NCBI GenBank assembly: GCA_041651055.1
Contig: JBAZJW010000001.1
Span: forward strand, 472,506 to 536,505
Reading direction: 5' to 3'
DNA from: Minisyncoccota bacterium
GTDB lineage: Bacteria > Patescibacteriota > Minisyncoccia > Phycocordibacterales > UBA5272
Length of the DNA: 64,000 nucleotides
Shown: in pieces, positions 36,193 through 59,635 of the stretch
Position numbering within the stretch: the first letter of the stretch is position 1
Layout of the letters: every line of letters begins with the position of its first letter
Made by a program: the position numbers and the translations under genes
Notes under the pieces: model-generated
What the model saw: only the letters and a program-made list of their open reading frames with translations
The model's database searches: none
What the model was told of the DNA's origin: nothing

Positions 36193-36422
36193 GAACTTGG
36201 TCACAAAGTCTATTTTTGATCCGCCGGCTGGCGGACAAAAATATAAGACTTCGCGAAGTCGACTGGTAAATTAGTCGACACCTGTAGACGGCCCTATTTA
36301 AGTCCTACGGAAGTGACGTAGGCCATTCTAGGACTTGGTCACAAAGTCTATTTTTGAGTACAAAAATATAAGACTTCGCGACCCCTATTCAAGTCCTCAC
36401 GTATCGCACGCAGGTGCGATAC
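36193..36422. repeat. Two tandem copies (R1, R2) of a composite structured repeat downstream of tRNA-Leu
   Basis: Each copy begins with a partial tRNA-Leu T-arm copy (ggacttg / aacttgg), then gtcacaaagtctatttttg...caaaaatataagacttcgcga. R2 ends in the hairpin gtatcgcac-GCAG-gtgcgatac. R1 carries an extra gtcgac palindrome. Confidence 0.6.
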
Positions 36423-36427
36423 TTCCT

Positions 36428-36483
36428 GGGCACAAAATACAAAAAGCAAAGTCATATGACTTTGCTTTTTGTATTTTGTGCCC
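36428..36483. repeat. 56-bp perfect AT-rich palindrome abutting the tRNA-Leu 3' end
   Basis: gggcacaaaatacaaaaagcaaagtcatatgactttgctttttgtattttgtgccc. The conserved arm cacaaaatacaaaaag is shared with the palindromes at 38050 and 59578. Confidence 0.7.
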
Positions 36484-36562
36484 AGGAGAGGACTTGAACC
36501 TCCATGCCGTTGCCAGCGCTACCACCTCAAGGTAGTGCGTCTACCAGTTTCGCCACCTGGGC
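36479..36562 (-). tRNA. tRNA-Leu (GAG)
   Basis: Long variable arm, anticodon loop TTGAGGT, acceptor GCCCAGG/CCTGGGC. Confidence 0.85.
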
Positions 36563-37981: not shown

Positions 37982-38054
37982 GGGCGATTAGCTCAGTTGG
38001 TAGAGCAGCGCATTTACACTGCGAAGGTCAGAGGTTCGACCCCTCTATTGCCCA
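37982..38054 (+). tRNA. tRNA-Val (TAC)
   Basis: Cloverleaf with anticodon loop TTTACAC, acceptor GGGCGAT/ATTGCCC. Confidence 0.8.
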
Positions 38055-38105
38055 CAAAATACAAAAAGCACCATCTTTCGATGGTGCTTTTTGTATTTTG
38101 TGGGC
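38050..38105. repeat. 56-bp AT-rich palindrome abutting the tRNA-Val 3' end
   Basis: gcccacaaaatacaaaaagcacc-atctttcgat-ggtgctttttgtattttgtgggc. Confidence 0.7.
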
Positions 38106-38267
38106 AATAAGCAAATGACCTTCGTCACTTGCGTGAGGGGTCGAATACGGGTCGGAAAATCTTTTGTTTTGAGTGAAGCGAAAAACTGATTTTGTGACCG
38201 ACCCCCCTATTACTAAAAACCCTATCGTCTCTTTCAAAAATTTCTGCTAGTATACATACGTATCCAT

Positions 38268-40535: not shown

Positions 40536-40742
40536 GAAGAACAGTTTACCGTTTTTTGGAAGAAAATTCTAGGGATTTGAGATGTGTGATTTTCCTGCAA
40601 ATTTCATGTCGCTGTCGCTGAACAAAAATGGCCCACCAATTTCTTGGTGGACACATTTTTATACGAGGATATTTGCGGAGGCATATCCATAGTCGCGAGT
40701 ACGCTCGCGATTTTGCGGAGGAGGTGAGATTCGGTTACAAAG

Positions 40743-40819
40743 TCTAGTTTTGTGAATACACAAAACAGAAGACTTCGCGACCCCTATTCTCATCTCGCGC
40801 AAGTGACGCAGGTCACTTG
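40743..40819. repeat. Copy R3 of the composite repeat, directly after the partial tRNA-Ser copy
   Basis: ggttacaaagtctagttttgtgaatacacaaaacagaagacttcgcgacccctattc, then the hairpin gcaagtgac-GCAG-gtcacttgc. The stem is compensated relative to R2; the loop is conserved. Confidence 0.6.
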
Positions 40820-40836
40820 CTACTGTCCCTCGCTGT

Positions 40837-40880
40837 GAATATAAAAAGCACAAGGTTGAAACCTTGTGCTTTTTATATTC
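40837..40880. repeat. 44-bp AT-rich palindrome
   Basis: gaatataaaaagcacaaggtt-gaaa-ccttgtgctttttatattc. Confidence 0.6.
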
Positions 40881-41010
40881 AAGCGGTGATGTCGGGTTAA
40901 GTGCCCACAGGGTCAACCCACATAAGGGTATTCTAGCATCTTTTACTTAGTGGATTCGAGGACAGTGGGTCGGGTCTTAATAGACAGAATAGACACTATA
41001 AAAAGAAGAG

Positions 41011-42135
41011 CTAATGTTTATGACCGTGTGTGCTTTCCGCATCAGATACCTTTCCATGAAGCATATATGAAGCAATAAGTGTTGTTATTGGAACGGCAAG
41101 AACTAGGCCAATACTACCAATTAAAATACGAACCACTTCTGTTGCAAATACTTCACTATTTAAAATAAAGAGAACTCCAACAGTCGAACTCTGTATAAGC
41201 AGCAGCAATGGAAGAGATGCTCCGACATATGCGATGGCCAGAGTATTTACCAAAGCACCAATATGCTCTCGACCAATACGTATTCCTCGCTTATAAACTT
41301 CTTTACGCGTCATATGCTTGCCAGCTCTAAACAACTCTTCTATCGCGATTGCTTGCCCTATTGCAATGTCATAGAGAACCCCAAGAAGTCCTATCATAAT
41401 CCCGCCGAACAAAAGCCCAACCATACTTATCACTCCACGACTATCTAGTGTAAGATAGGTGGCCTCCTCTGAGCTATATCCACTAAGATTTCCTGCGTGC
41501 ACCACACAGTATGCGGCGAGGCCTGCCATGATAACAGTGATAATCATGCCGACTACTGCGGCAGTAGTTGTTCTGTTAAAGCCGTGAGTAATATACGACC
41601 CAGCAACAATAATTAAAGAAGCCACACCAATACTTACCAGTACCGCATTGTATCCGCCGTAGATACCGGGAATAAGAAGATAGAAGATTAGGAAGAAGCT
41701 ACCTATCAAACTAGCCAATCCACGCACTCCTTGAATGCCACCGAAAACAAATATAAGAACTACAAAAGTAACGGCTAGCCACAAAAGAATATCGAGCCGG
41801 TACGGGTCAGCCACCGACCAGTAGTCAGAACCATCTAAATGATTACTTTGGTGTCGAGCATAAAAGATCTCCCCTTCTTTTAGTTGAATATAATCATTCT
41901 TAAAGGTTGCTGTCTTCCCCTGATCTTTACCGCTGATGACTTCTATTTTTATGGTTTGTGTTTGGCCTACGGTATCAGTTCCAGGAATAGTTGTTGTTCC
42001 ATGATCTAAAATTTGAACTACTTTAGCTTTTTCGAAAGTTTCAGTATCTGCTACAAGTGTTGCGTCTTGAGCAAATGACAAAGTAGGCATAAGAGTGAGA
42101 CTAAACAATGATAGGAAAAGTAGCTTCTTTAACAT
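41011..42135 (-). CDS. YibE/F-family membrane protein
   Basis: Signal peptide, soluble N-domain, then ~8 TM with YibE/F-like glycine-rich helices. Confidence 0.65.
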   Translation of the reverse strand: MLKKLLFLSLFSLTLMPTLSFAQDATLVADTETFEKAKVVQILDHGTTTIPGTDTVGQTQTIKIEVISGKDQGKTATFKNDYIQLKEGEIFYARHQSNHLDGSDYWSVADPYRLDILLWLAVTFVVLIFVFGGIQGVRGLASLIGSFFLIFYLLIPGIYGGYNAVLVSIGVASLIIVAGSYITHGFNRTTTAAVVGMIITVIMAGLAAYCVVHAGNLSGYSSEEATYLTLDSRGVISMVGLLFGGIMIGLLGVLYDIAIGQAIAIEELFRAGKHMTRKEVYKRGIRIGREHIGALVNTLAIAYVGASLPLLLLIQSSTVGVLFILNSEVFATEVVRILIGSIGLVLAVPITTLIASYMLHGKVSDAESTHGHKH

Positions 42136-42153
42136 AGTGTAAGTATACCAATC

Positions 42154-42585
42154 TTATTTTTTACTGCAGGCTTTACAAAGACCGAAGAACTCAAGCGAGT
42201 GAGAGTTAATGATAGAAAAGTTCTTTGAAGACTTAAGAACTTCTTTCTGAAGATTGGCCTGTTCACAGTGTTCAATATCTTCAATCTTCCCACATCTCTC
42301 ACATACGATGTGATGATGGTGGTGGTCTTCATGAAGAAATTCATAATAGGCAGCGGTGTCTTGGAGATTAATCTTTCCAACGATTTTTGAGGTTACAAAA
42401 TCCTCTAGCGCACGATAGAGCGTAACCTTGTCCATTACCTCTCCCATTTCCTTTTGTATCTCTCCTGCAGTTAAGGGTTTCTTGGAGCGACTAAGAAATG
42501 ATAGAAGTGCGATTCGCCCGGGTGTAATTCTGTACCCGTGCTCCCGCAATAACTCTTCGTGTCCCAAAGTGTCTTTAGATTTCAT
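42154..42585 (-). CDS. Fur-family metalloregulator
   Basis: Winged HTH, HHHHH and CxxC...CxxC metal sites. Confidence 0.8.
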   Translation of the reverse strand: MKSKDTLGHEELLREHGYRITPGRIALLSFLSRSKKPLTAGEIQKEMGEVMDKVTLYRALEDFVTSKIVGKINLQDTAAYYEFLHEDHHHHHIVCERCGKIEDIEHCEQANLQKEVLKSSKNFSIINSHSLEFFGLCKACSKK

Positions 42586-42670
42586 AGTTGCATTAGTATA
42601 CCACTAACGCAACTCTATTGCAATAGTAAGTTAGATGTTGTATATTCTATATGCAACTCATTTGTGTTAT

Positions 42671-43498
42671 ATGAAAATAGCATTCGTCGGAAAAGGAGGC
42701 AGTGGAAAAAGCTCCGTATCATGGCTAGCTGTTAAGACTATAGAAGATATAGGGTCTTCAGTCTTGGCTATTGATGCTGACCATAATATGGATCTTACTT
42801 CTAACTTAGGACTTGATCCTGAGACTACTCCTCTTATGCATAAAACTGAACAAGAGTTTATGGAGCAAGTAGGTGTTTCAAAAGTAAGCGGTGTACTTAA
42901 CAAAGACATAACCACTCTTCCTTCATTTACGACAGACCCTCAGGACTCATACACAGCGTCTATAGCTACATATGTGAGTGATAAAATTTCTCTTATCAAT
43001 ATCGGACTAGGAGCGCCTGATGTTATGTTTTCGGGTAAATGCGCTCACGGTCTATCTGGTCCGCTTAAATACTATCTTGGATTGCTCGATGAAAAGGACG
43101 ACTTTGTAGTAATCGACAGTGTTGCGGGTGCTGACATGCTTAATTACGGACTCTACGCAGGAATTGATGCAGTGATTGGGGTTGTGGAGCCACACAGAAA
43201 CAGCGTTAAAGTATTTGAGCAGATACAGGATATTTGCCGCAAGTCTTTGATTCCATGTTTTGCTGTTGTTAATAAACCGACAGATAATGAATTCTATAAA
43301 GACTTTGTTTCAAAGAATGGCGAGAAGATTTTAGGAGAAATTCCATTTGATGAAAATGTAATGTCTTATAACTACACAAGGGTACAAACAAAAACAAAAC
43401 AAGCTATGACTTCTGTATTAGAAAAGATTAAGCGCTTAAAGAAGAGGGGCAATCTTACAACTATCAAGAGTTTTCAAGATATGAAGACAAGTAAGTAG
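42671..43498 (+). CDS. ParA/MinD/CooC-family P-loop ATPase
   Basis: Deviant Walker A KIAFVGKGGSGKSS. Start taken at the internal Met of the longer ORF. Confidence 0.65.
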   Translation: MKIAFVGKGGSGKSSVSWLAVKTIEDIGSSVLAIDADHNMDLTSNLGLDPETTPLMHKTEQEFMEQVGVSKVSGVLNKDITTLPSFTTDPQDSYTASIATYVSDKISLINIGLGAPDVMFSGKCAHGLSGPLKYYLGLLDEKDDFVVIDSVAGADMLNYGLYAGIDAVIGVVEPHRNSVKVFEQIQDICRKSLIPCFAVVNKPTDNEFYKDFVSKNGEKILGEIPFDENVMSYNYTRVQTKTKQAMTSVLEKIKRLKKRGNLTTIKSFQDMKTSK

Positions 43499-43586
43499 TG
43501 CTCAATACGTTTTGTCTGCATTTGAATATGCAGGTAAAACGTCAGAGTGCTCCTTATCATCAATCCAACTTCATGGAGAAGTCATC

Positions 43587-43937
43587 ATGTCTTTGCCTTC
43601 AATCGCAACTGTCGATACCAAGAACCTCAAGCCCGAACAGCTGGAAGACCTGCTGTTTGAGGCCATCAAGAAAGACCTTCCCTTGGCGTTCGCCTGGTTC
43701 AAGAACTTGAGCCTGGGCGTCCACCACAAGGAAGACCCCGCGACGCCGCTCGCTTCCCAGATCAAACGTGTCGTTGCCGACGGCATGCGCCACGTTCTCG
43801 AGAAGAAGCTGTTTGACGGCAAGCGGATCGTGTTTGCGAACTGCTGCGACGTGATCGTTGATCCCCCGAAGGGCTTCAACGCCGTCCTGTTCCAGTTCGA
43901 GACACAGAATGGGAAGCTCAACTATGCCGACTGCTGA
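43587..43937 (+). CDS. Hypothetical protein, GC-rich cassette gene 1
   Basis: ~57% GC against a ~40% background. Start chosen at the ATG preceded by ggagaag. Confidence 0.5.
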   Translation: MSLPSIATVDTKNLKPEQLEDLLFEAIKKDLPLAFAWFKNLSLGVHHKEDPATPLASQIKRVVADGMRHVLEKKLFDGKRIVFANCCDVIVDPPKGFNAVLFQFETQNGKLNYADC

Positions 43938-44295
43938 GAGTTCGTTCAGCGCTTTCCTAGCCGAAAACGCGGATCATCTCCTCCTGCTTTGCCGAAAGGA
44001 AGGCTTTGCGTTCTCGGTGAAAGAAAGTTCGCGGTGCATAACCGTGCGGTGTACGCTGCCTGGGGGTCACGTCCGCTTCGTCATCTTTGACGATCATCGG
44101 ATTGAAAATCCTCACGGTGGCAAACCGCACGTGTGCAACCAATGGCACAAGGCGGTCGGCGACCCCATCTCGTACACGATGGGGAAAGACATGGCTGATG
44201 CTTCGCAGTTAGAAAGTGTGCTTCGTGCCACAGCTGTGATGTGTCTTACGCAAAGCGAAGCGTACAACACCATGAAGGAAACAATCTTCCAGTAG
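43924..44295 (+). CDS. Hypothetical protein, GC-rich cassette gene 2 (Rx4H HEPN-like motif)
   Basis: ATG overlaps the upstream stop (ATGCCGACTGCTGA). Contains DDHRIENPHGG. Followed by a terminator. Confidence 0.5.
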   Translation: MPTAESSFSAFLAENADHLLLLCRKEGFAFSVKESSRCITVRCTLPGGHVRFVIFDDHRIENPHGGKPHVCNQWHKAVGDPISYTMGKDMADASQLESVLRATAVMCLTQSEAYNTMKETIFQ

Positions 44296-44333
44296 TAATC
44301 TTCTTCTGCTGCAACAAGTCTCCTAATGTGGGA

Positions 44334-44362
44334 GCGGCCCGATTTCAGTCGGGCTTTTTTAT
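44334..44362 (+). terminator. Intrinsic terminator after the GC-rich cassette
   Basis: gcccga-tttcag-tcgggc followed by tttttt. Confidence 0.7.
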
Positions 44363-44386
44363 TGTTTTAAAAAGGTATATACCATT

Positions 44387-45067
44387 TTAGTAACTGGAAT
44401 ACTTATATCTTTCCTCTTCAGTTTCTTGAACAACGAAATCTACTCGCTTCGCACTTCCATCAAACATATTGTCATCAAGCGAATAGGTAACTGGTTTTCC
44501 TCGTGCTGAGTACTCGAGTGTCTTGAACAGATATCCAAGGAACGAGCCTGTATACCTGTATCTGCGAGTGCACCCAAGAATGATTTGGTCTATCTCGTCT
44601 TGAAATCCTTTCCATTTGTGAATCTGGTAATACTTATCTATCCATTCATCAACAACGCACCGTACCCATCTGACAATCTCATTGCTCGCTACCATGTTTC
44701 CTTTCTGGGATACTCTGACTAAGCGAATGATTATCTTGTTCCGTAGGTTTCTGTCATGCTCATCTTGCGGAGCAATAAATATGTAAAGCTTCTTCTGATA
44801 CTTTATTAAAATCTTATCTACCTCTTCTTGTTTGCTGTACTGCTTACGAACTCTCACTCTGTACCGTGCCCATCGCTTCGCATGTGATCTCTCGATTGAA
44901 GAAGTTATGGTATCCCAATCGATACTTCCGTCTTCGGTTCGTATGTTGTTTCGGAAATAATGATAGACAGTTTGTAGATGCTTAAATATCCAAGAGCTAC
45001 TGAATGTCTCTGGCTGTAGTTCTGCTAATTTTGAGTTGAGTTGTGCTATGGCTCTATCAAAATTCAT
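44387..45067 (-). CDS. Hypothetical protein
   Basis: 226-aa ORF inside the island. Confidence 0.5.
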   Translation of the reverse strand: MNFDRAIAQLNSKLAELQPETFSSSWIFKHLQTVYHYFRNNIRTEDGSIDWDTITSSIERSHAKRWARYRVRVRKQYSKQEEVDKILIKYQKKLYIFIAPQDEHDRNLRNKIIIRLVRVSQKGNMVASNEIVRWVRCVVDEWIDKYYQIHKWKGFQDEIDQIILGCTRRYRYTGSFLGYLFKTLEYSARGKPVTYSLDDNMFDGSAKRVDFVVQETEEERYKYSSY

Positions 45068-45076
45068 TTCTCATAA

Positions 45077-45373
45077 TTATCCTCTCACAAAGCCCATCAG
45101 TAAACCAAGTGCAATCATGCCACCAACACCGATAAGGATCCACTTCATAGTAAGTTTGAAATCTTTACTCATTCCTTGTGGCTGTTCAACAACGTGACCC
45201 GCAATGTGAACGTCTTTTGTTAAAGCCCATACGAGTGCAACTACCCAACCGATGAATGTCCACCCTAAGAAGATGTTTAACATGAGCACTGCCATTCTGT
45301 TTAACTTCTTGTTGTTAAACGCAATGATGGATGGAATAAAGTAGAGAACTGTGAGAATTATAAATAGAACCAT
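45077..45373 (-). CDS. Small membrane protein (3 TM)
   Basis: 98-aa hydrophobic ORF. Confidence 0.5.
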   Translation of the reverse strand: MVLFIILTVLYFIPSIIAFNNKKLNRMAVLMLNIFLGWTFIGWVVALVWALTKDVHIAGHVVEQPQGMSKDFKLTMKWILIGVGGMIALGLLMGFVRG

Positions 45374-45804
45374 AGTTATTTAATTAATTGATAACTGTGG
45401 TGAGATACAAAAAGCCCACCACGTGAGTGAAGTCTTGCGACTTCCATATCCGTTTCCAGATATGACCGGTAAAGGTAAATCCCACATGATGGGTTCTTTA
45501 TCCTTTACCGGGTTTTCGACCATACCTTACAAGAAATTCTCACAAGGGTTAGGTCTCTTTATTGATTTGTTGTTTTATTTTATCACTTTTAGTGACTTTT
45601 GCATCCTAGCTTAGCTTCAGGTGTTTGTGTAGTCTTGACTTCAACCAAGTGTGAGGCATACACTGGGAGCAGTTCAGAAGCAAAACGAAATACCTACCTA
45701 AACAGAAGAGGACGGAATACCCATTCCCAACCCTCGCTTGTTTGGGTGGGTATTTTTGTTTCTGACATACCTAAACGGATTTACTAATTAACAATATATT
45801 TGTT

Positions 45805-47133
45805 ATGAATAATCTAAACATTGTGTATGTTAGCGTAACAGACATTAAGCCCGCAGAATATAATCCGCGCAAGTGGAGCGAAACTCAAGCGGAAGCTCTT
45901 AAGGAGAGCATTACTAGATTCGGTATGGTGGACCCACTCATCTGTAATTTATTTGAGGGACGAAAGAATATTCTCATCGGAGGACATTTCCGTTTCAAGA
46001 TTGCACAGGACTTAGGATTCGCTGAAGTTCCTGTGGTGTATGTTTCAATCTCTGACCTTGCTAAGGAAAAGGAACTCAACCTTCGTCTTAATAAGAATGT
46101 CGGTGAGTTTGACTTCACTCTTCTCAAAGAGTTTGATGAAGCATTCCTTGAAGATATTGGTTTTGGTTCTTCTGAACTAGATACTATCTTCGATATAGAA
46201 ACCGTTGAAGAGGTATTTGATTTAGAAAAGGAACTTAAGAAGTTAGATATTAATGAAGTAAACGTAAAGAAAGGAGATATCTATGAACTCGATGGCTCAC
46301 GCCTTATGTGTGGTGATTCAACAGTAGACGGTCAGTGGGAAACACTTTGTAACGGTAACCTTGCAGACATGTGCTTCACAGACCCGCCATATATTTTGGA
46401 CTATCTTCATGGCAAGACTCGTAACGGTAAAGCAACAGAAGGATTCGGTACAAAGAAGAATCGCAGGTATTTAGAAACAGAATCATTACCAGATAATTTC
46501 ACTGACCTTTGGATGGAACAAATTGCTAAAGTGCAGAAGAAGGACTTCTCAATCATCGTGTATGAGAATCCAAAGAACCTGCGAACCATTTGGAACGCAC
46601 TTGAGAAACATTGGAAGTACCGCAATACGATTATCTGGCACTTACCAAACCGTATGCAGGGATTCTCTGCGAAGTACAAGTTCTTCAATAAGCATGACTT
46701 CGCTATTGTTGGATCAATTGGAAACGTGGAACTCAATCTTAAAGACGAGGACGATCTCTTCCAAACGGAATACGAGACAGCGCTCTTTGCAACGTCTGGC
46801 TCACCTTATTGGGAATCCTATGGTAAAGGCAAGAAGTACTGCCCAACGGATTTCATTGAGTACAAGTCATCGGATGCAAAATCTTCTGGGCAAGGAATAA
46901 TCTTCGGTACGAAACCACTGGAGATTCTCATCTCGTATATCAAAGTACTCACTAAACGCAATGACTTAATCCTAGAGCCGTTTGGAGGGTCAGGAAGCAC
47001 GTTAATTGCTTCAGTTAAGATGGGACGTCGCTGTTACATTATGGAAAAGTCACCAGTATACGCAGAAGTAATTCTCAAGCGCTGGGAGAAGGCCACTGGA
47101 AAGAAACCAGTTAAGGTAGAACTCCATGGCTAG
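45805..47133 (+). CDS. ParB-like N-terminal domain fused to an N6/N4 DNA methyltransferase (beta class)
   Basis: ParB/Srx block IGGHFRF. DPPY motif IV (CFTDPPYILDY) precedes FxGxG motif I (EPFGGSGSTLIA). Confidence 0.8.
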   Translation: MNNLNIVYVSVTDIKPAEYNPRKWSETQAEALKESITRFGMVDPLICNLFEGRKNILIGGHFRFKIAQDLGFAEVPVVYVSISDLAKEKELNLRLNKNVGEFDFTLLKEFDEAFLEDIGFGSSELDTIFDIETVEEVFDLEKELKKLDINEVNVKKGDIYELDGSRLMCGDSTVDGQWETLCNGNLADMCFTDPPYILDYLHGKTRNGKATEGFGTKKNRRYLETESLPDNFTDLWMEQIAKVQKKDFSIIVYENPKNLRTIWNALEKHWKYRNTIIWHLPNRMQGFSAKYKFFNKHDFAIVGSIGNVELNLKDEDDLFQTEYETALFATSGSPYWESYGKGKKYCPTDFIEYKSSDAKSSGQGIIFGTKPLEILISYIKVLTKRNDLILEPFGGSGSTLIASVKMGRRCYIMEKSPVYAEVILKRWEKATGKKPVKVELHG

Positions 47134-47788
47134 TCGTAGGGCTAGCAAAACACCTAAACAGAAAAAGTCTCCTCAATCTGAAACGGCGACCCAGAAAGAG
47201 AAACTACTTGTGCAGTTAACCAAAGTTCCCATTGTGCAGATTGCCACAGAGCGAGTCGGTATAGGACGCTCTACGTATTACGCGTGGCGAGATACCGATG
47301 AAGAGTTTCGAGAGCTAGCAGACAAGGCATTACGAGAAGGAAACTGTGTCATCAATGACTTGGCTGAATCTCGCCTTATTAAGAATATTCAAGAAGGCAA
47401 CAATACTTCGATTATCTTCTGGCTGAAGAACCACAGCAGTAACTACTCAGACCGTATCGTTCACCAAATGGAACTTCCTAAGTTTACAGCGGAAGACGCA
47501 AAAGAACTTGGGCAGACATTCCTTCGAGCATTTGGTGGGTCGCTTGCTAAAGTTCCTCAACATATCGTTGACGAGTTCCAGGACAAGAATTGGGAGTTAG
47601 ATGAAGATGAGCTTGAAACTCTTAACGAGCACATGAAGCAAGATGTGATTGTTCCGCTTACCGAGGAAGACATGGAAATGACTGATGAGGAAAATGAAGT
47701 TGTCGATCTTCCACCACCAAAGTCATCTCCAAATACGAAACGACGAGGTGTTAATTTGCAAGAGTTTGAGAAACGGAGGAAGAAGTAG
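47126..47788 (+). CDS. HTH DNA-binding protein, phage terminase-small-subunit-like
   Basis: HTH segment VQIATERVGIGRSTYYAWRD. Overlaps the MTase stop by 8 nt. Acidic C-terminus. Confidence 0.45.
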   Translation: MASRRASKTPKQKKSPQSETATQKEKLLVQLTKVPIVQIATERVGIGRSTYYAWRDTDEEFRELADKALREGNCVINDLAESRLIKNIQEGNNTSIIFWLKNHSSNYSDRIVHQMELPKFTAEDAKELGQTFLRAFGGSLAKVPQHIVDEFQDKNWELDEDELETLNEHMKQDVIVPLTEEDMEMTDEENEVVDLPPPKSSPNTKRRGVNLQEFEKRRKK

Positions 47789-47795
47789 ATAGAAT

Positions 47796-47818
47796 AAAAC
47801 CCACGTTACGTGGGTTTT
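47796..47818. terminator. Bidirectional hairpin between convergent genes
   Basis: aaaacccacgt-t-acgtgggtttt. Confidence 0.55.
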
Positions 47819-47850
47819 ATTCTTCAGACAATATGGTAGTAACTTGCATA

Positions 47851-48738
47851 CTACTCAGGTTGTGCTTGAGACTCTGCTTGTTTCTTAGCTACAGTCTTGT
47901 CGACAACCTCAAGTAAATGACTGAGCATTATTATTCTTGAGGCTGCTTCATGTGGTGGCAACTGATCTACGTTACCGTGACCAACAATGTTCTTACACCA
48001 TTGCATTGCACCCATAGCAACTAGCATAAATCCCTCTTTCTCATCCATTGGATTTGCAATCGCACTTCCATGGTATCGAGAGACATCTATTAGTGGGGTA
48101 TCTTTGTTGAATACTTGTGCCATAAGGTTACGTCCGAATTGACCATGTACCCCTGACCACCTCATGATTTCTGTTTCTGTAATTTCTCCAGCTTTCCTCA
48201 CTGACTCATTCATGTAGCCATCCTTGAATAAAGGGATAACATCAGACAATAATGTCTTATGCAGCCCGATGCCTTGTAGTGATTGAAGGATCACTGGGTT
48301 CGGAGGTGTTATCGCTGGACGTGTAATAGGTAATTCAAGTTCATCTATTTCCTTTCTCAGATCAATGCCGAACTCCAGGAGCTTCTCTTTGAACAAATCT
48401 GCTTCTGGTCTTAACCAAGGATTACCCTGTGAACGACATCTTATGATGCAATCTGCAAGAATGTCATTTATCAAACGCTTCAACGTTTTCGGATGTGCTT
48501 TATGTACAGCAGAAATGAAGTGAGTGAATTGCTTCTTTTTGCTCTGTCCTTCAAGGAAGTACTTCGATAGACCTTTGTTTTTTGCAATCTTCTGTAAACA
48601 AAACGGGCTACGAGACGTTGCAGGGAGTAATTTACCCAACATTTCTGCAAGATCTTGGATCACTTGCTGTTGTCTGGGCGAATAGCGTTTCCTTGATGGA
48701 ACTGCTTTTCTTTTCGCCTTTTTAATGACTTTCTTCAT
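47851..48738 (-). CDS. Hypothetical protein (possible Abi/Ymh-like C-terminal region)
   Basis: 295-aa ORF with a basic N-terminus. C-terminal block HGQFGRN...VGHGNVDQLPPHEAASRII. Confidence 0.45.
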   Translation of the reverse strand: MKKVIKKAKRKAVPSRKRYSPRQQQVIQDLAEMLGKLLPATSRSPFCLQKIAKNKGLSKYFLEGQSKKKQFTHFISAVHKAHPKTLKRLINDILADCIIRCRSQGNPWLRPEADLFKEKLLEFGIDLRKEIDELELPITRPAITPPNPVILQSLQGIGLHKTLLSDVIPLFKDGYMNESVRKAGEITETEIMRWSGVHGQFGRNLMAQVFNKDTPLIDVSRYHGSAIANPMDEKEGFMLVAMGAMQWCKNIVGHGNVDQLPPHEAASRIIMLSHLLEVVDKTVAKKQAESQAQPE

Positions 48739-48750
48739 AGGAAGAATTTA

Positions 48751-49536
48751 TTACTCTTCCGAAACATTAACTTCAGGCACCATCTCTTTGAGGTGTGCAT
48801 TAGAAAATGCTGTTAGCGCAGTACGGGCATCTTTCAAATCCCCATCAGCGATAGCATTCGATGTTGCTTCATTGCGTGGAATAATGAGCTTAATTCCGCC
48901 TTTGAAATTGAAAACGAAACTGTCGGTCTCTTCTGCTCTGACAGTGTTTGAAAGTGAGGGTGCTTTTTCTGTAACCTTATTTGGTGTTACAGTAGTCTCA
49001 GTTGGAATTACTTCACTTGCTCCTTGTAACTCTGATAAAACCAATATTTCGTTCTGCATCATTCCAGAGTATTCTGCTGATCTTACGAAATTTCTTGCTG
49101 CAGTATCTTTCGCCGCCGCTTCAATACCGTAGTCGTGTACTAAAAGGTTACCGAGTGTCTGAACTTCTGGCAACTTCTTACCTTTGAAGACCTCAACTAA
49201 TTCTCCATAGAGTTGAGGGGCAACGAACGCTTTACGTATCGCTTGAACTTTCGATGGTTCATCTCGCGGAAACGCTATCTCTTTTCCTAGTGGAGAAAGA
49301 GATAGTTTGCCGCTTTCCTGATTTATTAGGCCGAACTGTTTAGCAGAGCTCACACGACCGATAAAAGTCGAGTTGTTTACTGCCTTACCCATATGTGCGG
49401 CGACAGCATCACCAGATACTCTATTTCCACCCAGAGTATTTACGATACCGATAAACGTGATAACTTCCTCAAGGTCATAGCGGGGGTATAACCTACTTCT
49501 TGCCTTTGTTTCCTTTTCTTTTGGTGTATTTTCCAT
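48751..49536 (-). CDS. Hypothetical protein
   Basis: 261-aa ORF upstream of the 47851 gene, same strand with a 12-nt gap. Confidence 0.45.
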   Translation of the reverse strand: MENTPKEKETKARSRLYPRYDLEEVITFIGIVNTLGGNRVSGDAVAAHMGKAVNNSTFIGRVSSAKQFGLINQESGKLSLSPLGKEIAFPRDEPSKVQAIRKAFVAPQLYGELVEVFKGKKLPEVQTLGNLLVHDYGIEAAAKDTAARNFVRSAEYSGMMQNEILVLSELQGASEVIPTETTVTPNKVTEKAPSLSNTVRAEETDSFVFNFKGGIKLIIPRNEATSNAIADGDLKDARTALTAFSNAHLKEMVPEVNVSEE

Positions 49537-49763
49537 ATAAATTAACTTTTAGTGTGATTAACGGAGTTTGTGCCTCCTGTTTGATATCGTACCAAATAAA
49601 TGGAAGTAAAGTCAAGTGTTTGTGCAAGAACTTCTACCTGTTTTATAAATCCCTTATTTATCAAGCACTTATGTATAGTTATCCACATAGAAAGCAGTGA
49701 TTAGGAGTGGAATACAAAACCGTATATTACCTACTTGACTAGTCCAGGGCCCTGCGTCATTCA

Positions 49764-51098
49764 TTGGTGTATATGAGCAATACAGTACAGACACCATTTG
49801 GGACACCAAATAAGGAGGTTCTAGAACCCTTGAGGCTAAAATACTGCCTTTACGCACGCAAAAGCACCGAAGCCGAGGAAAGGCAGATGCTTTCGATAGA
49901 TTCACAAATAAAAGAGATGTTACTACTGGCTGAACGTGAAGGACTGGAGATAGTAGCCATGAAGCGAGAATCTCACTCCGCCAAGGAAACAGGACAACGA
50001 CCAGTGTTTAATGAAATCATCAACGAGATTAAAGAAGGTAAATATAATGGCATTCTTACATGGGCGCCTGATCGAATTTCCCGTAACGCAGGAGACTTAG
50101 GGAAAGTCGTAGACCTTATGGACAGAGGAACACTGAAAGAAATACGCACCTACGGGCAAAGCTTCAGTAATTCACCGAATGAAAAGTTCCTTCTCATGAT
50201 ACTCGGTTCTCAGGCAAAGCTTGAAAACGATAACCGAGGCATTAATGTGAAGCGTGGATTGCGCATGAGGGCAGAGATGGGGTTATGGTGTGGCAAGGCA
50301 CCGCTCGGCTACCTCAATCAGAAAGATATGGATAAGAAGTGTCAGGTATTAGTAGACCCACTACGCGCACCAATCATTAAGAAAATGCACGAGAGAGTTG
50401 CGTACGAAAAGTGGAGTGGAAGGAAGTTGTACAACTGGTTGCGATTTGAATGTAATTTCTACACAAGAGGAAACAAACCACTCACACTTGCAGGTGTATA
50501 CAGAACACTAGAAAATCCTTTTTACTACGGGGTGTTCGAGAGACCAAAAGGAAGTGGTGAATGGCATCAAGGAAAGCATCAACCCATCATTGACCAAGAG
50601 CTCTTTGAGAAAGCGAGAGCACAACTGAAACGTGACCAGATAGTTCGTGAGAGTAAAGAATTTGCATTCACTAAGATGTTTACCTGTGGTTACTGTAGTA
50701 GTGGCATCTCAGCAGAAGAGAAGTGGAAAGAGTTGAAAGGTGGAGGAGCAAACAGATACATCTACTATAGTTGTTCTCGGGCGAGAGATAGAAATTGTAA
50801 GAATAAGTATATTCGTGAAGAAGACTTGATACTGGAATTGTTAAAAATACTGGATGAGCTAGATATCAATGAACTTGGTATGAGACAGCGCCTCGAAGAA
50901 GAAATTGCCAGGTTCAATATATTTCAAAGGTCTGTACTTGGTGCAAAGGAAAAGTTGGAAACGAACAAGGAAACAGATATACGGAACTATGCGAAATATA
51001 TCCTTAAAGAAGGAACTACCGATGAAAAAAGACAGTTACTCGGTAATCTTAGAACAAGAATTATATATAAGGATAAAAAATTAGAGTTAACTAAATAA
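49764..51098 (+). CDS. Large serine recombinase (resolvase/invertase N-domain, recombinase domain and zinc ribbon)
   Basis: YARKSTEAEERQ...SIDSQ catalytic-Ser region. Recombinase-domain blocks GKAPLGY. CxxC...CxxC zinc ribbon. Confidence 0.85.
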   Translation: MVYMSNTVQTPFGTPNKEVLEPLRLKYCLYARKSTEAEERQMLSIDSQIKEMLLLAEREGLEIVAMKRESHSAKETGQRPVFNEIINEIKEGKYNGILTWAPDRISRNAGDLGKVVDLMDRGTLKEIRTYGQSFSNSPNEKFLLMILGSQAKLENDNRGINVKRGLRMRAEMGLWCGKAPLGYLNQKDMDKKCQVLVDPLRAPIIKKMHERVAYEKWSGRKLYNWLRFECNFYTRGNKPLTLAGVYRTLENPFYYGVFERPKGSGEWHQGKHQPIIDQELFEKARAQLKRDQIVRESKEFAFTKMFTCGYCSSGISAEEKWKELKGGGANRYIYYSCSRARDRNCKNKYIREEDLILELLKILDELDINELGMRQRLEEEIARFNIFQRSVLGAKEKLETNKETDIRNYAKYILKEGTTDEKRQLLGNLRTRIIYKDKKLELTK

Positions 51099-51127
51099 TC
51101 ATCTTTATTTTTTGTTATAATCTAGTC

Positions 51128-52198
51128 ATGAGCCAAGTATTCATTGCTTTTTATGGACACCCTGAACCTGTTATGAAACAGGAAGAGAATATTTATGTGA
51201 CTGCTGAAAATTTTGAATGCTGGAATTTACGGAATTTCTCTGCAGAAGAGTTTATGAATACTATAAAAACTAAGATACCTCCTATTAATGATAATGTGCT
51301 AATAAATTATCTGAATGAAGGAGCGGGTTCGGGTGGTATAAGTAAAGAACAGTATGGTGACTGTCTCTGGGGGTTATTGTTACCTGATCCAGAAAGAAAT
51401 TTTAGTAACTCGAAAGAAGTAAACTCTCTCCTGAATCTGTTTTCAACTAAGTATATGAGTCCCGCTTTCTTTGTTACAGACATGGGAATACGAAAAGAGA
51501 ATAAGTTCATAGGAGTTGACGTCGAACCGAATGATCATCAAAGGTACGAGGATTTTAAAACGACTGATTTTGTTTCTTTCTATAATACTATGATTGACCA
51601 GATGAAGTATTTCACCTGGAGAAGAGATACTGCTACGACTTGGACGGAAGAAGATTGGAGATTATTTATGGCAGCTGGTTTTTATGAGGGATTAGAAGAA
51701 TACAGTAAAGGCAAGACGTCTTACACATGGCAGAGAGAGTCCGCAGATATGGCGACTTTGTTAGAAACATTATTTACAGCTGGTGACTCTCAAAACGAAG
51801 AAATTGGATATAGGCTAAGAAAAAGAGTTGGATCATTGATAAAGTGGAAATTCAACGATATCGAAAAAGAAATAAAGGTTCTATATAAAGACCGCAGTGA
51901 TTTTGTTCATGGTAATTATTACACCAGGATTATTAGAGAGATGAGAGGTAACCAAAATGATAACGCAATGCTACCTCCACCAGATTTCGAGAAACTCTAT
52001 ACCACGAAAGAACGCATAAGATTTATCTTTGTTGCATACTTATATTTACATAAAACGATGATGTCTCGTTCTGAACAATCTTTTGCTACATATACTAGCG
52101 TTCAACAAATGCTGGAGGATGCTGTTTTAGATACAGAATTAAGATTAAAGATAATTGAAACTATCGAACCCGTAATAGATTTATTGCCTGAAGCTTAA
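51128..52198 (+). CDS. Hypothetical protein with C-terminal Rx4H (HEPN-like) motif
   Basis: 356 aa and AT-rich. Contains DRSDFVHGNYY. Confidence 0.45.
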   Translation: MSQVFIAFYGHPEPVMKQEENIYVTAENFECWNLRNFSAEEFMNTIKTKIPPINDNVLINYLNEGAGSGGISKEQYGDCLWGLLLPDPERNFSNSKEVNSLLNLFSTKYMSPAFFVTDMGIRKENKFIGVDVEPNDHQRYEDFKTTDFVSFYNTMIDQMKYFTWRRDTATTWTEEDWRLFMAAGFYEGLEEYSKGKTSYTWQRESADMATLLETLFTAGDSQNEEIGYRLRKRVGSLIKWKFNDIEKEIKVLYKDRSDFVHGNYYTRIIREMRGNQNDNAMLPPPDFEKLYTTKERIRFIFVAYLYLHKTMMSRSEQSFATYTSVQQMLEDAVLDTELRLKIIETIEPVIDLLPEA

Positions 52199-52626
52199 GA
52201 AAAGATACCAAGAGCATGACCATGGTTTATATTAAAACTTATCTCTCCTAATAAAATGACTCCCTCAGGGGTCTTAATATTCAAAAGATATATTCTCTTT
52301 GATTCCGAAATTCTTTTTGGGTGATGACCAGAGTATCCTTTTTGTTCTGACTTAAAAAGAGTGCTTATATTTTTATCCACATTGCTAATGTCAACATCCA
52401 AGGTTCCATAGTTCTGATCCCAACGTGCAGTAAAAAATGGCAGCATACCATCAAGTGGTTCAACCTTAAAAAGTACCAGTAATCCAGTATCTGATAATTT
52501 TTGAGATTCGTCTATTTTAAAAAGATAGTTTGAGCTAATAAATTCTTCCTTGAATTCAAGGTTTGACACCTTGTCGACCCTGAAGACATTCACTCCATCT
52601 TTTTTGAAGACATTGTCTTTTTGCAT
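52195..52626 (-). CDS. Hypothetical protein
   Basis: 143-aa ORF convergent with the upstream gene. AT-rich. Confidence 0.4.
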   Translation of the reverse strand: MQKDNVFKKDGVNVFRVDKVSNLEFKEEFISSNYLFKIDESQKLSDTGLLVLFKVEPLDGMLPFFTARWDQNYGTLDVDISNVDKNISTLFKSEQKGYSGHHPKRISESKRIYLLNIKTPEGVILLGEISFNINHGHALGIFS

Positions 52627-52650
52627 GTTTTTTTAATTTTACCACCCCCA

Positions 52651-52682
52651 GTACAAAGTGACCCACTATAGGGATAGTGGGT
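52651..52682 (-). terminator. Hairpin immediately downstream of tRNA-Ser
   Basis: agtgacccactat-aggg-atagtgggtcact. Confidence 0.55.
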
Positions 52683-52706
52683 CACTCCGATACTTAATTA
52701 TTTATG

Positions 52707-52794
52707 CGGAGGAGGTGAGATTCGAACTCACGGTCCGATTACTCAGACTTCTGTTTTCAAGACAGATGCGATAGACCAACTCTGCCACTCCTCC
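52707..52794 (-). tRNA. tRNA-Ser (TGA)
   Basis: Long variable arm. Anticodon loop CTTGAAA. Acceptor GGAGGAG/CTCCTCC. T-arm GTGAG-TTCGAAT-CTCAC. Confidence 0.85.
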
Positions 52795-53051
52795 CTGTTT
52801 ACCAATTGTTTTACCAATTGTTGCAATACTATACCACGTTTTATCAATTTTTGAAATACTTGAAAATGTCTACAAATGATGTTCCTCGTAGTGACAATTC
52901 GGGCAAATTAATTCCAAGTTTTCTAAACTGTTGTCGCTTCTGTTTCTGTTTTTATGATGAATTTGTAGTATTCCGCTTTTGTCATAACTACACCAGCAAA
53001 CTAGTCGACACAAGGATCTTTCTTGTCTTAAGCAAAGAACCGGCCCACCTC

Positions 53052-53984
53052 TTACTTTGTAACATCTACTTTCTTTACTTTCTCAAGCTGTTCTGATGTC
53101 GTTTTTGAAACAATCTTAAGTAGAGAAAAATCTGTACTGTCATCAAAATACTTACCCAAATCATTTACGCTATCTATTTTTTTACCTATACACACCCTTT
53201 TTTCTTCCACGGTATCGAGTATCAATCGATCGTTAAAGATAGTATATGTTTCAACCGAATTACAAGGATACAGCCCAAACGGCCTCATGCCATAAACCTT
53301 AATCTGATCAGTCTCTTTATCATATATAGCATTGGTAATATCTTTCTGAACATGTGCTTCGGAATCAAGATATGGAAGTGGTTCTACTATAACACTTGAA
53401 TCTCCCATAAAAGTAGCCATGTATGTTGTGCTAAATATATTATATACACCTGAGTTCACCATATCACTCAGAATAAAAAGAACTGAGCCATCTTTTCTGT
53501 AATAACTATCAATACGAAATGGATCGAATCCATCCCACGATTCAAAAGCATCTATAATACTTGCGCCAGGCATGTCTGTCGGCAACTCTCCAAAGCGGTT
53601 TCCAAGCTTAAGAAAAACATAGTCATCAAAGATGGACTTCCATGTCGCCTCGTTGCTTTTATTTGTGCGACTTTGTGTTAGATAGTTCTCGACATCCTTA
53701 TGATTGTTATCCATGAGCTTCCACCTGCGTATTCGAAGATCTTTTACAGCCTTATCATCTGAGGTTTCTTGAGATTGACGTGTGTTTATTTCTTTGGTGA
53801 CTGCCTCTATCTCTGAAATAAAAGGTGATTCGACTAATGTTTCATTGTTAGTTTTTTTACCAAGAAAAAACCATATGTTTTTATTACTATTTTTATTTTT
53901 TAAAACTAAAAAAACTGAGACAATAACAAGTAAAACAAAAAGGAGAATTAAGCTAATTATTTTTTTATGAGAAAAGTTTTTCAT
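53052..53984 (-). CDS. Hypothetical membrane-anchored protein
   Basis: 310 aa with an N-terminal TM. AT-rich. Confidence 0.45.
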   Translation of the reverse strand: MKNFSHKKIISLILLFVLLVIVSVFLVLKNKNSNKNIWFFLGKKTNNETLVESPFISEIEAVTKEINTRQSQETSDDKAVKDLRIRRWKLMDNNHKDVENYLTQSRTNKSNEATWKSIFDDYVFLKLGNRFGELPTDMPGASIIDAFESWDGFDPFRIDSYYRKDGSVLFILSDMVNSGVYNIFSTTYMATFMGDSSVIVEPLPYLDSEAHVQKDITNAIYDKETDQIKVYGMRPFGLYPCNSVETYTIFNDRLILDTVEEKRVCIGKKIDSVNDLGKYFDDSTDFSLLKIVSKTTSEQLEKVKKVDVTK

Positions 53985-54145
53985 AGGTAAAGTATACCCT
54001 AAATAATCGGCATTAGGTTGTCGGGCCGTAGCGATCGTCCTATATAGGAGTGCTCCTGTCTCTAAAAAAGAAGAACAAACAAAAACATCGAAGGTGAACC
54101 TTCGATGTTTTTGTTGAAAAAATTATGTTACAACCTGACGTCTTT

Positions 54146-59356: not shown

Positions 59357-59446
59357 GCTATGTTCTCCGGGTTGTTAAAGGACTTAACCAGTATAGCATG
59401 AAAAATAGACTGTGTCAATAGCTTGCGAAGAGATCGGCTCTCGGCA

Positions 59447-59463
59447 GGAATCGGCTACAAATC
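59447..59463. repeat. 17-bp direct repeat of the tRNA-Arg(GCG) 3' end
   Basis: gctctcggcaggaatcg is identical to 59630-59646. Followed by gctacaaatc...tcgtcgccactcaa...ccgccgctcgtggttt, an arm homologous to 35020-35086. Confidence 0.6.
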
Positions 59464-59577
59464 TTTTTTCGTCGCCACTCAAAAAGTTCGCAGCCCGCCG
59501 CTCGTGGTTTTTCTTGCTAGAAAAACATCACTGCGCCCATTCGATTCCTGACGAAAAGCGCGCAGGCGCTTTTCTCC

Positions 59578-59635
59578 GAGAGCACAAAATACAAAAACCA
59601 CTTCTTTATGAAGTGGTTTTTGTATTTTGTGCTCT
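59578..59635. repeat. 58-bp AT-rich palindrome abutting the tRNA-Arg(GCG) 3' end
   Basis: gagagcacaaaatacaaaaaccacttc-tttatg-aagtggtttttgtattttgtgctctc. Confidence 0.7.

Follow-up and report, generated by a model that had tools for sequence, protein, structure and literature searches.

In staphylococci, cassettes of the SCCmec and ACME type (staphylococcal cassette chromosome, SCC; arginine catabolic mobile element, ACME) are integrated by Ccr large serine recombinases (LSRs) at the extreme 3′ end of a housekeeping gene (rlmH), which is kept while an att-like (attachment) site is regenerated, so that cassettes with and without a recombinase of their own can pile up in tandem as composite islands with adaptive or defence cargo. 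The tycheposons described from the streamlined genomes of Prochlorococcus are tRNA-specific cargo elements that form tandem arrays and in which the integrase clade sets the tRNA target; 910 of 937 tycheposon-type elements carry tyrosine recombinases and many contain replication modules (primase, helicase) (Hackl et al., bioRxiv 10.1101/2020.12.28.424599). Here we analysed a stretch of 64,000 nucleotides (hereafter the window; positions 472,506 to 536,505 of contig JBAZJW010000001.1, assembly GCA_041651055.1) from a Minisyncoccota bacterium, a member of the Candidate Phyla Radiation (CPR), in which an interval of about 12 kb beside tRNA-Ser(TGA) had been proposed, in an original prediction made from the sequence alone, to be a genomic island bounded by a 20-bp direct repeat of the tRNA 3′ end. 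Very probably, an LSR island was integrated at the 3′ end of this tRNA gene, and the 20-bp repeat stems from a structured RNA that lies next to many tRNA genes in these genomes.

In mechanistic terms the island would be an LSR integrative element, and the behaviour of its family appears, by analogy, closest to SCC elements and tycheposons. With SCC it has in common an LSR acting at the extreme 3′ end of a gene without inactivating it, an att-like site that is formed anew, tandem autonomous and non-autonomous cassettes among its relatives and defence cargo, while it differs in its target (tRNA-Ser instead of rlmH), in its CPR host, in a single LSR instead of a CcrAB pair, in a backbone composed of a ParB-methyltransferase, a helix-turn-helix (HTH) protein and a LOOT RNA, and in the P arm of its attachment site, which mimics a tRNA 3′ end. 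The likeness to tycheposons lies in the tandem arrays and in LSR sub-clades with Ser, Gln, Asp, Glu, Trp or Asn tRNAs as their targets, although the island in the window has an LSR and lacks replication genes.

The LSR gene (49764..51098, plus strand; gene callers' start 49773) encodes a protein with the domains Resolvase (PF00239, E = 4e−18), Recombinase (PF07508, E = 6e−10) and Zn_ribbon_recom (PF13408, E = 3e−8), and it matches the PHROG integrase profile (E = 1e−54). Its open reading frame (ORF) is full length, with the catalytic serine motif YARKS35T and the zinc ribbon intact. More than 120 homologs at ~80% identity were found in unrelated flanking contexts, in metagenome-assembled genomes (MAGs) labelled Giovannonibacteria, Minisyncoccia, Paceibacterota and Patescibacteria. 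When every LSR locus at ≥ 55% identity with a detected downstream tRNA was considered (comparison loci are given as L numbers), a tRNA-Ser gene lay on the opposite strand, 0.8–4.6 kb past the LSR stop and with its 3′ end facing the LSR, in the window and in L036, L038, L041, L049, L050, L051, L057, L059, and L074. In L047 the tRNA-Ser is ~9 kb off, past three stacked cassettes, array junctions take the place of the tRNA in L045 and L055, and at several loci of greater distance the sequence examined contains no tRNA. In the window, tRNA-Ser(TGA) is intact and located on the minus strand (52706..52794; ARAGORN; Rfam tRNA, 55.5 bits), so that its 3′ end does point into the interval as predicted, and at least 10 independent LSR loci with the same geometry and junction motif uphold the proposal of an inserted island with the serine recombinase as its integrase.

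No match to a tyrosine recombinase (Phage_integrase) was obtained for any island ORF with Pfam, PHROGs or NCBIfam, and no capsid, tail, packaging or primase/replication genes were present in the island, the only phage-like matches being a weak terS-like HTH protein, the ParB-methyltransferase and an Imm_superinfect protein. Since the defining features of tyrosine-integrase tRNA islands, prophages and phage-inducible chromosomal islands were each tested and not found, the island belongs to none of these classes. The phage-type serine integrases (phiC31, Bxb1, A118, TP901-1) have the same domain architecture and likewise use simple att sites of ~50 bp with a very short core and no long repeats; the island differs from them in lacking phage structural genes, in its tRNA 3′ end target, in an attP arm that resembles an attB arm, and in that no directionality factor was identified. 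We found nothing relevant in the literature on CPR LSRs at tRNA-Ser.

Apart from these loci, more distant LSR relatives (43–63% identity) from IMG/VR stand in the same geometry beside tRNA-Gln, Asp, Glu, Trp or Asn (L060, L068, L070, L072, L075, L077, L079), which suggests an entire clade of serine recombinases devoted to tRNA 3′ ends, its sub-clades differing in the tRNA they use. ARAGORN also detected a recurrent tRNA-Ser with the anticodon ACT (A34), mostly as a tandem neighbour of tRNA-Ser(GCT) (L002 4013-4101, L003 3895-3982, L007 10533-10622, L029 265-352, L036 6011-6098, L059 13929-14016); it seems to be an unusual isoacceptor that is conserved in these CPR genomes and is also an LSR target.

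Two junctions delimit the island. At attL (52660..52709, minus strand) the tRNA-Ser 3′ end, which serves as the B arm, terminates in the core CCGC (52709-52706) and is followed by the P′ arm with the motif TAAGTATCGGAGTGACCC (52696-52679). The corresponding family motif, TAAGTATCGG(A/T)GTGACCC, starts 8–12 nt past the tRNA-Ser end in the window, L036, L038, L041, L045, L047, L049, L051, L057, and L059; every island locus with an LSR at ≥ 67% identity has it behind tRNA-Ser, and the island-free locus L015 lacks it. At the opposite end, attR (40882..40936, minus strand) consists of a P arm, termed X (ending in ...CTGTGGGCACTTAACCCGACATCACCGC, 40910-40883), with the core CCGC at 40886-40883, and belongs to a conserved end module that extends to ~40999, with homology to L005 covering 40959-40999. 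The same X arm ends LSR-less cassettes in L005 (twice) and L007 (twice), with a hairpin and an RNA element after it each time, and in the distant relative L041 X is joined directly to P′, forming an attP-like junction. Within the 64 kb, the profiles of P′ (E = 1e−10) and of the P arm (E = 1e−16) each gave a single significant match.

The sequence that attL and attR have in common is CCGC only (52709-52706 and 40886-40883), and the absence of a long duplication together with a common core of ~4 nt is as expected for a serine recombinase. The attB reconstructed from both junctions, ...CTCCTCCGC followed by TTGAATATAAAAAGCACAAGG, has the same form as the natural junction in L015, where ...AATCCGC is followed by TTGAATAGAAAAAGTACAAGG. 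The left boundary would thus be at ~40883-40886, and the left copy of the 20-mer ~150 bp outside the island and attR. These sequence comparisons strongly support attL (tRNA-Ser 3′ end plus P′) and attR (X), and not the 20-bp repeat, as the putative real att sites of an 11.8-kb island (~40887-52705) at tRNA-Ser.

In the window the 20-mer TGCGGAGGAGGTGAGATTCG has exactly two copies, both on the plus strand (40714-40733 and 52705-52724), where 0 matches are expected (100 shuffles), and the identity grows to 23 nt if one mismatch is allowed. The repeat, its common orientation and its right copy had been described correctly, whereas the left copy had been placed at 40723-40742, 9 nt off; what did not hold was its reading as an att duplication. 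Its left copy is the 3′ end (last 20 nt, 40733-40714) of a structured RNA element on the minus strand (40714..40833; 85 bits, E = 3e−20) that is cognate to tRNA-Ser(TGA) and located outside the island. The intergenic region 40536-41010 is homologous to other loci and to the regions just after tRNA-Leu and tRNA-Val in the window, and a metagenome scan with a core pattern and nhmmer yielded a family of 47 copies. In their standard layout a tRNA gene (Arg, Leu, Val, Tyr, Phe, Gln, Gly or Ser) is followed first by a long AT-rich hairpin and next by the element of ~120 nt, whose last ~20 nt reproduce this tRNA from C56 in the T-loop through its 3′ end, plus a few trailer bases. The match of this copy reaches 22/22 for Val, Leu, and Arg tRNAs and is best in the proximal copy. 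The elements normally lie 23–82 nt after the tRNA, without any island at many of the tRNA genes, so the 20-mer does belong to a widespread tRNA-adjacent repeat, an outcome that the original prediction had named as refuting its att reading, and tandem arrays are common; a separation of element and tRNA was seen only in the window (11.9 kb) and in L007 (2.2 kb, filled by a HaeIII-type restriction-modification (R-M) cassette). A decayed tRNA or tRNA paralog was considered as the source of the left copy and rejected, as the flanks correspond to the conserved non-tRNA element. The notion that the 40.7-kb repeat is the scar of an older integration was not borne out. Islands of tyrosine integrases also lie directly 3′ of a tRNA gene with a copy of its 3′ end at the far side, but here no tyrosine recombinase is found and the far-side copy pre-exists in the RNA element instead of being a product of recombination.

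An alignment of 30 element sequences defined three helices: the P2 hairpin, P3, in which an "anti-T" strand pairs with the T-arm part of the tRNA copy, and the long hairpin P4. Pairing was found in 96.5% of the cells, compared with 30–40% when the partner was slid, and 16 of the 27 pairs covaried with double-sided changes. Two G·U pairs are kept in 26–29 of the 30 copies, indicating an RNA transcribed in the tRNA sense, and the element contains the invariant core GAAUAGGGGUCGCGAA. A further candidate helix, P1, between the 5′ strand of the element and the acceptor part of the copy, was discarded (mean best helix 5.0 nt vs. 4.6 nt with mismatched partners). A covariance model of the family (R1, run with filters off) retrieved four significant copies in the window, all of them tRNA-associated: three (36318-36435, −; 38098-38218, +; 59438-59587, −) directly follow a tRNA gene each (tRNA-Leu, tRNA-Val or tRNA-Arg(GCG)), and the one at 40714-40833 (−) ends exactly at the left repeat copy. 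Rfam 15 returned no match for the element at gathering thresholds, with only spurious miRNA matches to the hairpin in E-value mode, and we found no description in the literature of a tRNA-adjacent RNA in Saccharibacteria; group I introns in the tRNAs of Patescibacteria are a matter of the anticodon loop and have no relation to the element (PMC13011429).

Further members of the element family were observed in L002, L005, L007, and L014–L035. The hairpins between tRNA and element are long and perfect, with up to 30 bp (38046-38109, 36440-36500, 40836-40881), often hold the exact complement of the acceptor 3′ strand plus the discriminator, and covary between copies in their apical parts, features that go beyond the needs of a simple intrinsic terminator.

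Taken together with an invariant GAA, the antisense strand of the element complements T54-C65 in the actual tRNA and so hints at contact with this tRNA or its precursor. We consider it somewhat more probable than not that the elements constitute an undescribed RNA class of ~120 nt, in which a matched copy of the neighbouring tRNA is paired to the antisense strand of P3 beside the invariant core, and which could act on or sense the cognate tRNA or pre-tRNA (3′ processing, quality control, fragment sensing), or could provide decoy or extra attB sites for tRNA-3′-end serine recombinases that build SCC-like arrays across CPR. Known tRNA-like RNAs (viral tRNA-like structures, mascRNA, YrlA) resemble it in being structured, in holding tRNA-derived T-arm and acceptor 3′ sequence and in their position beside tRNA genes; the element is distinct in copying only the 3′ strand of the T-arm, paired to the dedicated P3 strand without a cloverleaf, and in being matched to each neighbouring tRNA.

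The comparison with related genomes led to L015, in which L19, tRNA-Val, tRNA-Arg, VTT, tRNA_bind, and RuvX (the last three are the genes left of the repeat in the window) match in syntenic order at 78–90% amino acid identity and the match resumes beyond tRNA-Arg(GCG). Between RuvX and tRNA-Ser(TGA) the distance in L015 is only 2.3 kb, all genes of the interval are missing, and tRNA-Ser(TGA) is followed by hairpin, element, hairpin, and element. Because L015 is syntenic yet without the interval's genes, the interval is an insertion relative to this related genome. The perfect hairpin with a 22-bp stem at 40836..40881, delimited by a repeat search, the L015 sequence and the reconstructed attB, is orthologous to the second L015 hairpin, and would have been located just downstream of tRNA-Ser originally, where it would have served as the B′ arm.

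We therefore propose, as a model of the events, that an 11.8-kb LSR element would have integrated between tRNA-Ser(TGA) and the hairpin plus RNA element belonging to it. The attB would comprise the tRNA-Ser 3′ end (B), the CCGC core, within which we infer the crossover to lie, and the start of the hairpin (B′), while attP would comprise the X arm (P), loosely mimicking the T-arm and acceptor end of a tRNA, CCGC, and the TAAGTATCGGAGTGACCC arm (P′). The predicted circle junction (attP) reads TTGACCCTGTGGGCACTTAACCCGACATCACCGC followed by ATAAATAATTAAGTATCGGAGTGACCCAC, and the predicted empty attB reads ...GTTCGAATCTCACCTCCTCCGC followed by TTGAATATAAAAAGCACAAGG. Such an integration would have kept the tRNA intact, leaving attL at 52709-52660 and attR at 40936-40883, and would have moved the cognate RNA element 11.9 kb away from tRNA-Ser, which would be why the last 20 nt of the tRNA recur at the far end. 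As the P arm resembles a tRNA end, relatives of the element may be able to stack as tandem cassettes in an SCC-like manner. The direction and timing of these steps, as well as the present mobility of the island, can be put forward only conditionally.

The interpretation that it replaces, in which the 20-bp repeat is the att duplication and the island (40734-52705) includes the hairpin and RNA element as a terminal arm, would account for an identity of 20/20 far above chance and for the classic attL/attR picture of a complete tRNA, cargo and a 3′ fragment, which L007 repeats at the 2.2-kb scale. It is nevertheless highly improbable, as the layout of tRNA, hairpin, element, and fragment exists without cargo at Arg, Leu, Val, Tyr, Phe, Gln, and Ser tRNAs, including the tRNA-Ser(TGA) of L015, the fragment is base-paired within a covarying RNA structure, the island ORFs contain no tyrosine integrase match, and LSR relatives in lineages without the element family have the same X and P′ arms and no long tRNA-end repeat. 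A related view would deny the elements a function as RNA and treat them as miniature non-autonomous integrative elements, or remnants of them, that recombine at the tRNA T-loop, the 20-mer then being an older att scar. The constant position of the junction with the tRNA-derived segment at T-loop C56, the tandem arrays, whose best-matching copy is the one nearest the tRNA, and an acceptor part of the copy that decays and is not consistently paired would all fit this view. Nonetheless, it is unlikely given the strong covariation of P2, P3, and P4 and the two G·U pairs, which would turn into C·A mismatches if the opposite strand were read; moreover, the conserved GTGAC before the copy is unlike the T-stem of non-Ser tRNAs, so that no core-type symmetry for a recombinase results, no associated recombinase was found, and the minimal units carry neither the P′ nor the X arm of the LSR.

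Several observations weigh against the proposed integration or the details of its history. L015 is not a clean empty site, having two unrelated ORFs between the elements and RuvX and two elements in place of one, and the comparison that the original prediction had called for thus produced a locus without the interval's genes but no same-species empty site, since exact-protein look-ups of Fur, RuvX, and u310 retrieved only three contigs, all of them occupied. No circular-form junction was found, and the P and P′ arms are only weakly palindromic. The taxonomic labels of the MAGs are inconsistent, which leaves the affiliation with CPR certain and the finer label uncertain (the contigs with YibE/F relatives are mostly labelled Candidatus Saccharibacteria, and a protein identical to u356 is labelled Paceibacterota at NCBI). 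Arrival in one step is in turn challenged by block A, the run of genes from YibE/F to u145 at the left end of the island, which is missing from six other LSR islands in which u226, Ymh, u356, the ParB-methyltransferase, and the HTH protein recur, and which is chromosomal in L005 and L007, with the same relative gene order just outside attR (X, hairpin, element). The three occupied contigs and the missing circular form, along with the lack of a candidate recombination directionality factor, would suit a fixed relic, i.e., an immobile defence island that the LSR no longer mobilises, or whose LSR acts as an invertase or resolvase. We regard this as doubtful in view of a full-length LSR with its catalytic serine and zinc ribbon, of two att arms that score strongly against the family profiles, and of a 95%-identical LSR elsewhere which, together with the ~80% homologs in many contexts, speaks for recent activity of the family. 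Given the distribution of block A described above, the 11.8-kb unit may have been assembled in more than one step. In a two-step history, to which we give slightly less than an even chance, the canonical element would span ~8.4 kb (44.3–52.7 kb, from u226 to u143), and block A would be chromosomal DNA trapped between this element and the P arm; the trapping itself could have proceeded, e.g., by fusion with a neighbouring cassette or by imprecise excision and re-integration, a route that is equally tentative. Besides the distribution of block A, the sharp end of the homology to other species at 44296 argues for two steps, whereas the intergenic gap of only 91 nt near 44.3 kb holds no residual P, P′ or element sequence, ParA-Fur-YibE/F lies downstream of the P′ motif in L003, i.e., inside the cassette region, L015 has no block A at this locus, and the present att-bounded unit takes it in. 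Block A is thus inside today's unit and, at a confidence just short of even, was probably captured and not part of the original cargo. The earlier caution that housekeeping-like YibE/F and Fur might place the true boundary near 42.6 or 44.3 kb was justified insofar as neither gene is backbone or cargo of the family elsewhere and both are chromosomal beside the islands in L005 and L007; as to the boundary itself, the P and P′ profiles found no internal att sites at 42.6 or 44.3 kb.

Block A consists of YibE/F (41011-42135, −), Fur (42154-42585, −), a ParA/CbiA-like ATPase (42635-43498, +), all three identified with Pfam, and the GC-rich ORFs u141 (43512-43937, +) and u145 (ending at 44295, +), which with a GC content of 0.53–0.55 correspond to the GC-atypical two-gene cassette noted before. 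It is kept at 70–88% amino acid identity in L001, L002, L007, and partly in L003, L005, and L006, each time with different neighbours. The possibility that the GC-rich u141/u145 region hides a large RNA was dismissed, as the third-codon periodicity of its substitutions indicates real coding genes.

The remaining genes of the island agree with the predicted content, i.e., besides the LSR and the ParA-like ATPase, a fusion of ParB_N with an N6/N4 DNA methyltransferase (45805-47133, +; Pfam, PHROG) and a small terS-like HTH protein (47126-47788, +; PHROG terS E = 1e−9, Pfam below cut-off), both part of the backbone. Homologs of the ParB-methyltransferase (58–80%) and of the HTH protein following it (30–44%) occur in the LSR islands L047, L049, and L045. 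A LOOT RNA (RF03000; 45429..45555, −; 92.2 bits vs. a gathering threshold of 46.4, model positions 1–121) lies 5′ of an operon composed of an Imm_superinfect protein (45077-45373, −; PF14373, E = 7e−18) and u226 (44387-45067, −; 52% homolog in the LSR island L045), both recurrent cargo. LOOT RNAs are also present in L047 (3788-3898) and L049 (2075-2193), where they again precede a small operon that adjoins the ParB-methyltransferase gene. A minus-strand unit at 47851..49536 contains a Hypoth_Ymh protein (47851-48738; PF09509, E = 8e−15), with a 38% homolog adjoining the LSR in L045, and u261 (48751-49536); both are variable cargo, possibly with a role in defence.

Between the LSR and the tRNA are the AT-rich genes reported earlier, u356 (51128..52198, +) and u143 (52195..52626, −), the latter in a variable slot and without Pfam, PHROG, PADLOC or NCBIfam match. 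The Rx4H motif noted in one of them is real and invariant (R256, H261, G262) in the u356 family, recurrent cargo with ~170 homologs restricted to CPR, one of which (66%) occupies the same tRNA-adjacent slot in L049. Its AlphaFold2 model is confident (predicted local distance difference test score, pLDDT, 88) and places an alpha/beta domain at the N terminus and a helical one at the C terminus, and no structural or profile match was obtained; u356 may be a candidate HEPN-type effector, a hypothesis drawn from the Rx4H motif. The proposed check against defence models (PADLOC) returned only methyltransferase models, on the ParB-methyltransferase, while u356, u143, u261, Ymh, u226, u141, and u145 had no match. 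The cargo of other LSR islands includes Zorya-like ZorAB, Shedu SduA_C, Type ISP, Type III, and BpuSI R-M, AAA_13, AAA_15, DUF4238, and Mrr, so the mobile family combines a backbone (ParB-methyltransferase, small HTH protein, LOOT RNA, LSR) with variable, mostly defence-type cargo.

Tandem arrays of two to four cassettes were found downstream of tRNA-Ser(GCT) in L047 (12980-20685; four stacked junctions) and L041 (10533-11491; two junctions), LSR-less cassettes in L007 and L005, and a single unit in the window. Each array junction consists of a pseudo-tRNA 3′ end (e.g., AGTTCGAATCGCTTGGTCCCCGCC) followed by the P′ motif, and the cassettes are mostly without a recombinase and encode, for instance, an ABC transporter, Fic/AEP/helicase, a methyltransferase or a cohesin-dockerin protein. 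A complete LSR island with both ends in another genome was not captured within the flanks examined.

Just past the RNA element in the window is a second tRNA-Ser-like end, ATGCCTCCGCA (40674..40684, −), preceded by a CGCGAGCGTACTCGCG hairpin, which from its sequence and from the context in L003 (4142) appears to be an unoccupied pseudo-attB; its homolog in L003 (~4100-4160) is followed by a P′ motif, implying a secondary attachment site there. The Logan contigs SRR8542065_550383 and SRR8542065_73212 (L086, L013/L084) end or begin at window positions ~52707 and ~52733, i.e., at the tRNA-Ser 3′ end and att core, a break that is ambiguous and could reflect a repeat common to another tRNA-Ser gene or heterogeneity of the attachment site. 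Island and genome have the same overall GC content (0.409 vs. 0.414), only the stretch u356-u143-tRNA-u310 being AT-rich. Upstream of tRNA-Ser, the region 52795-54000 has a GC content of 0.34, as AT-rich as the u356-u143 side, and encodes u310 with a weak YoqO-like match. The spacing between tRNA-Ser and tRNA-Arg(GCG) is 6.8 kb in the window vs. 2.35 kb in L015, hence variability extends to the opposite flank of the tRNA.

For the annotation of islands in this lineage, a direct repeat of a tRNA 3′ end is an unreliable integration signature, as an abundant structured RNA carries such a copy by design. With its strong covariation and no Rfam entry, this element family is a new object for RNA biology, and the LOOT RNA, an orphan motif until now, gains a genomic home in a mobile-element family. 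The LSR family hits the last bases of tRNA-Ser and leaves the gene undamaged, its predicted attP and attB are directly testable, and compact tRNA-targeting serine integrases of this kind are candidate tools. It also builds tandem arrays of defence cassettes (R-M, Zorya-like, Shedu-like, AAA_15, and unknown effectors, e.g., u356). The tiny genomes of CPR/Patescibacteria are thought to be poor in mobile elements; here they harbour a very successful integrative family, with an LSR that is ~80% identical across many lineages.

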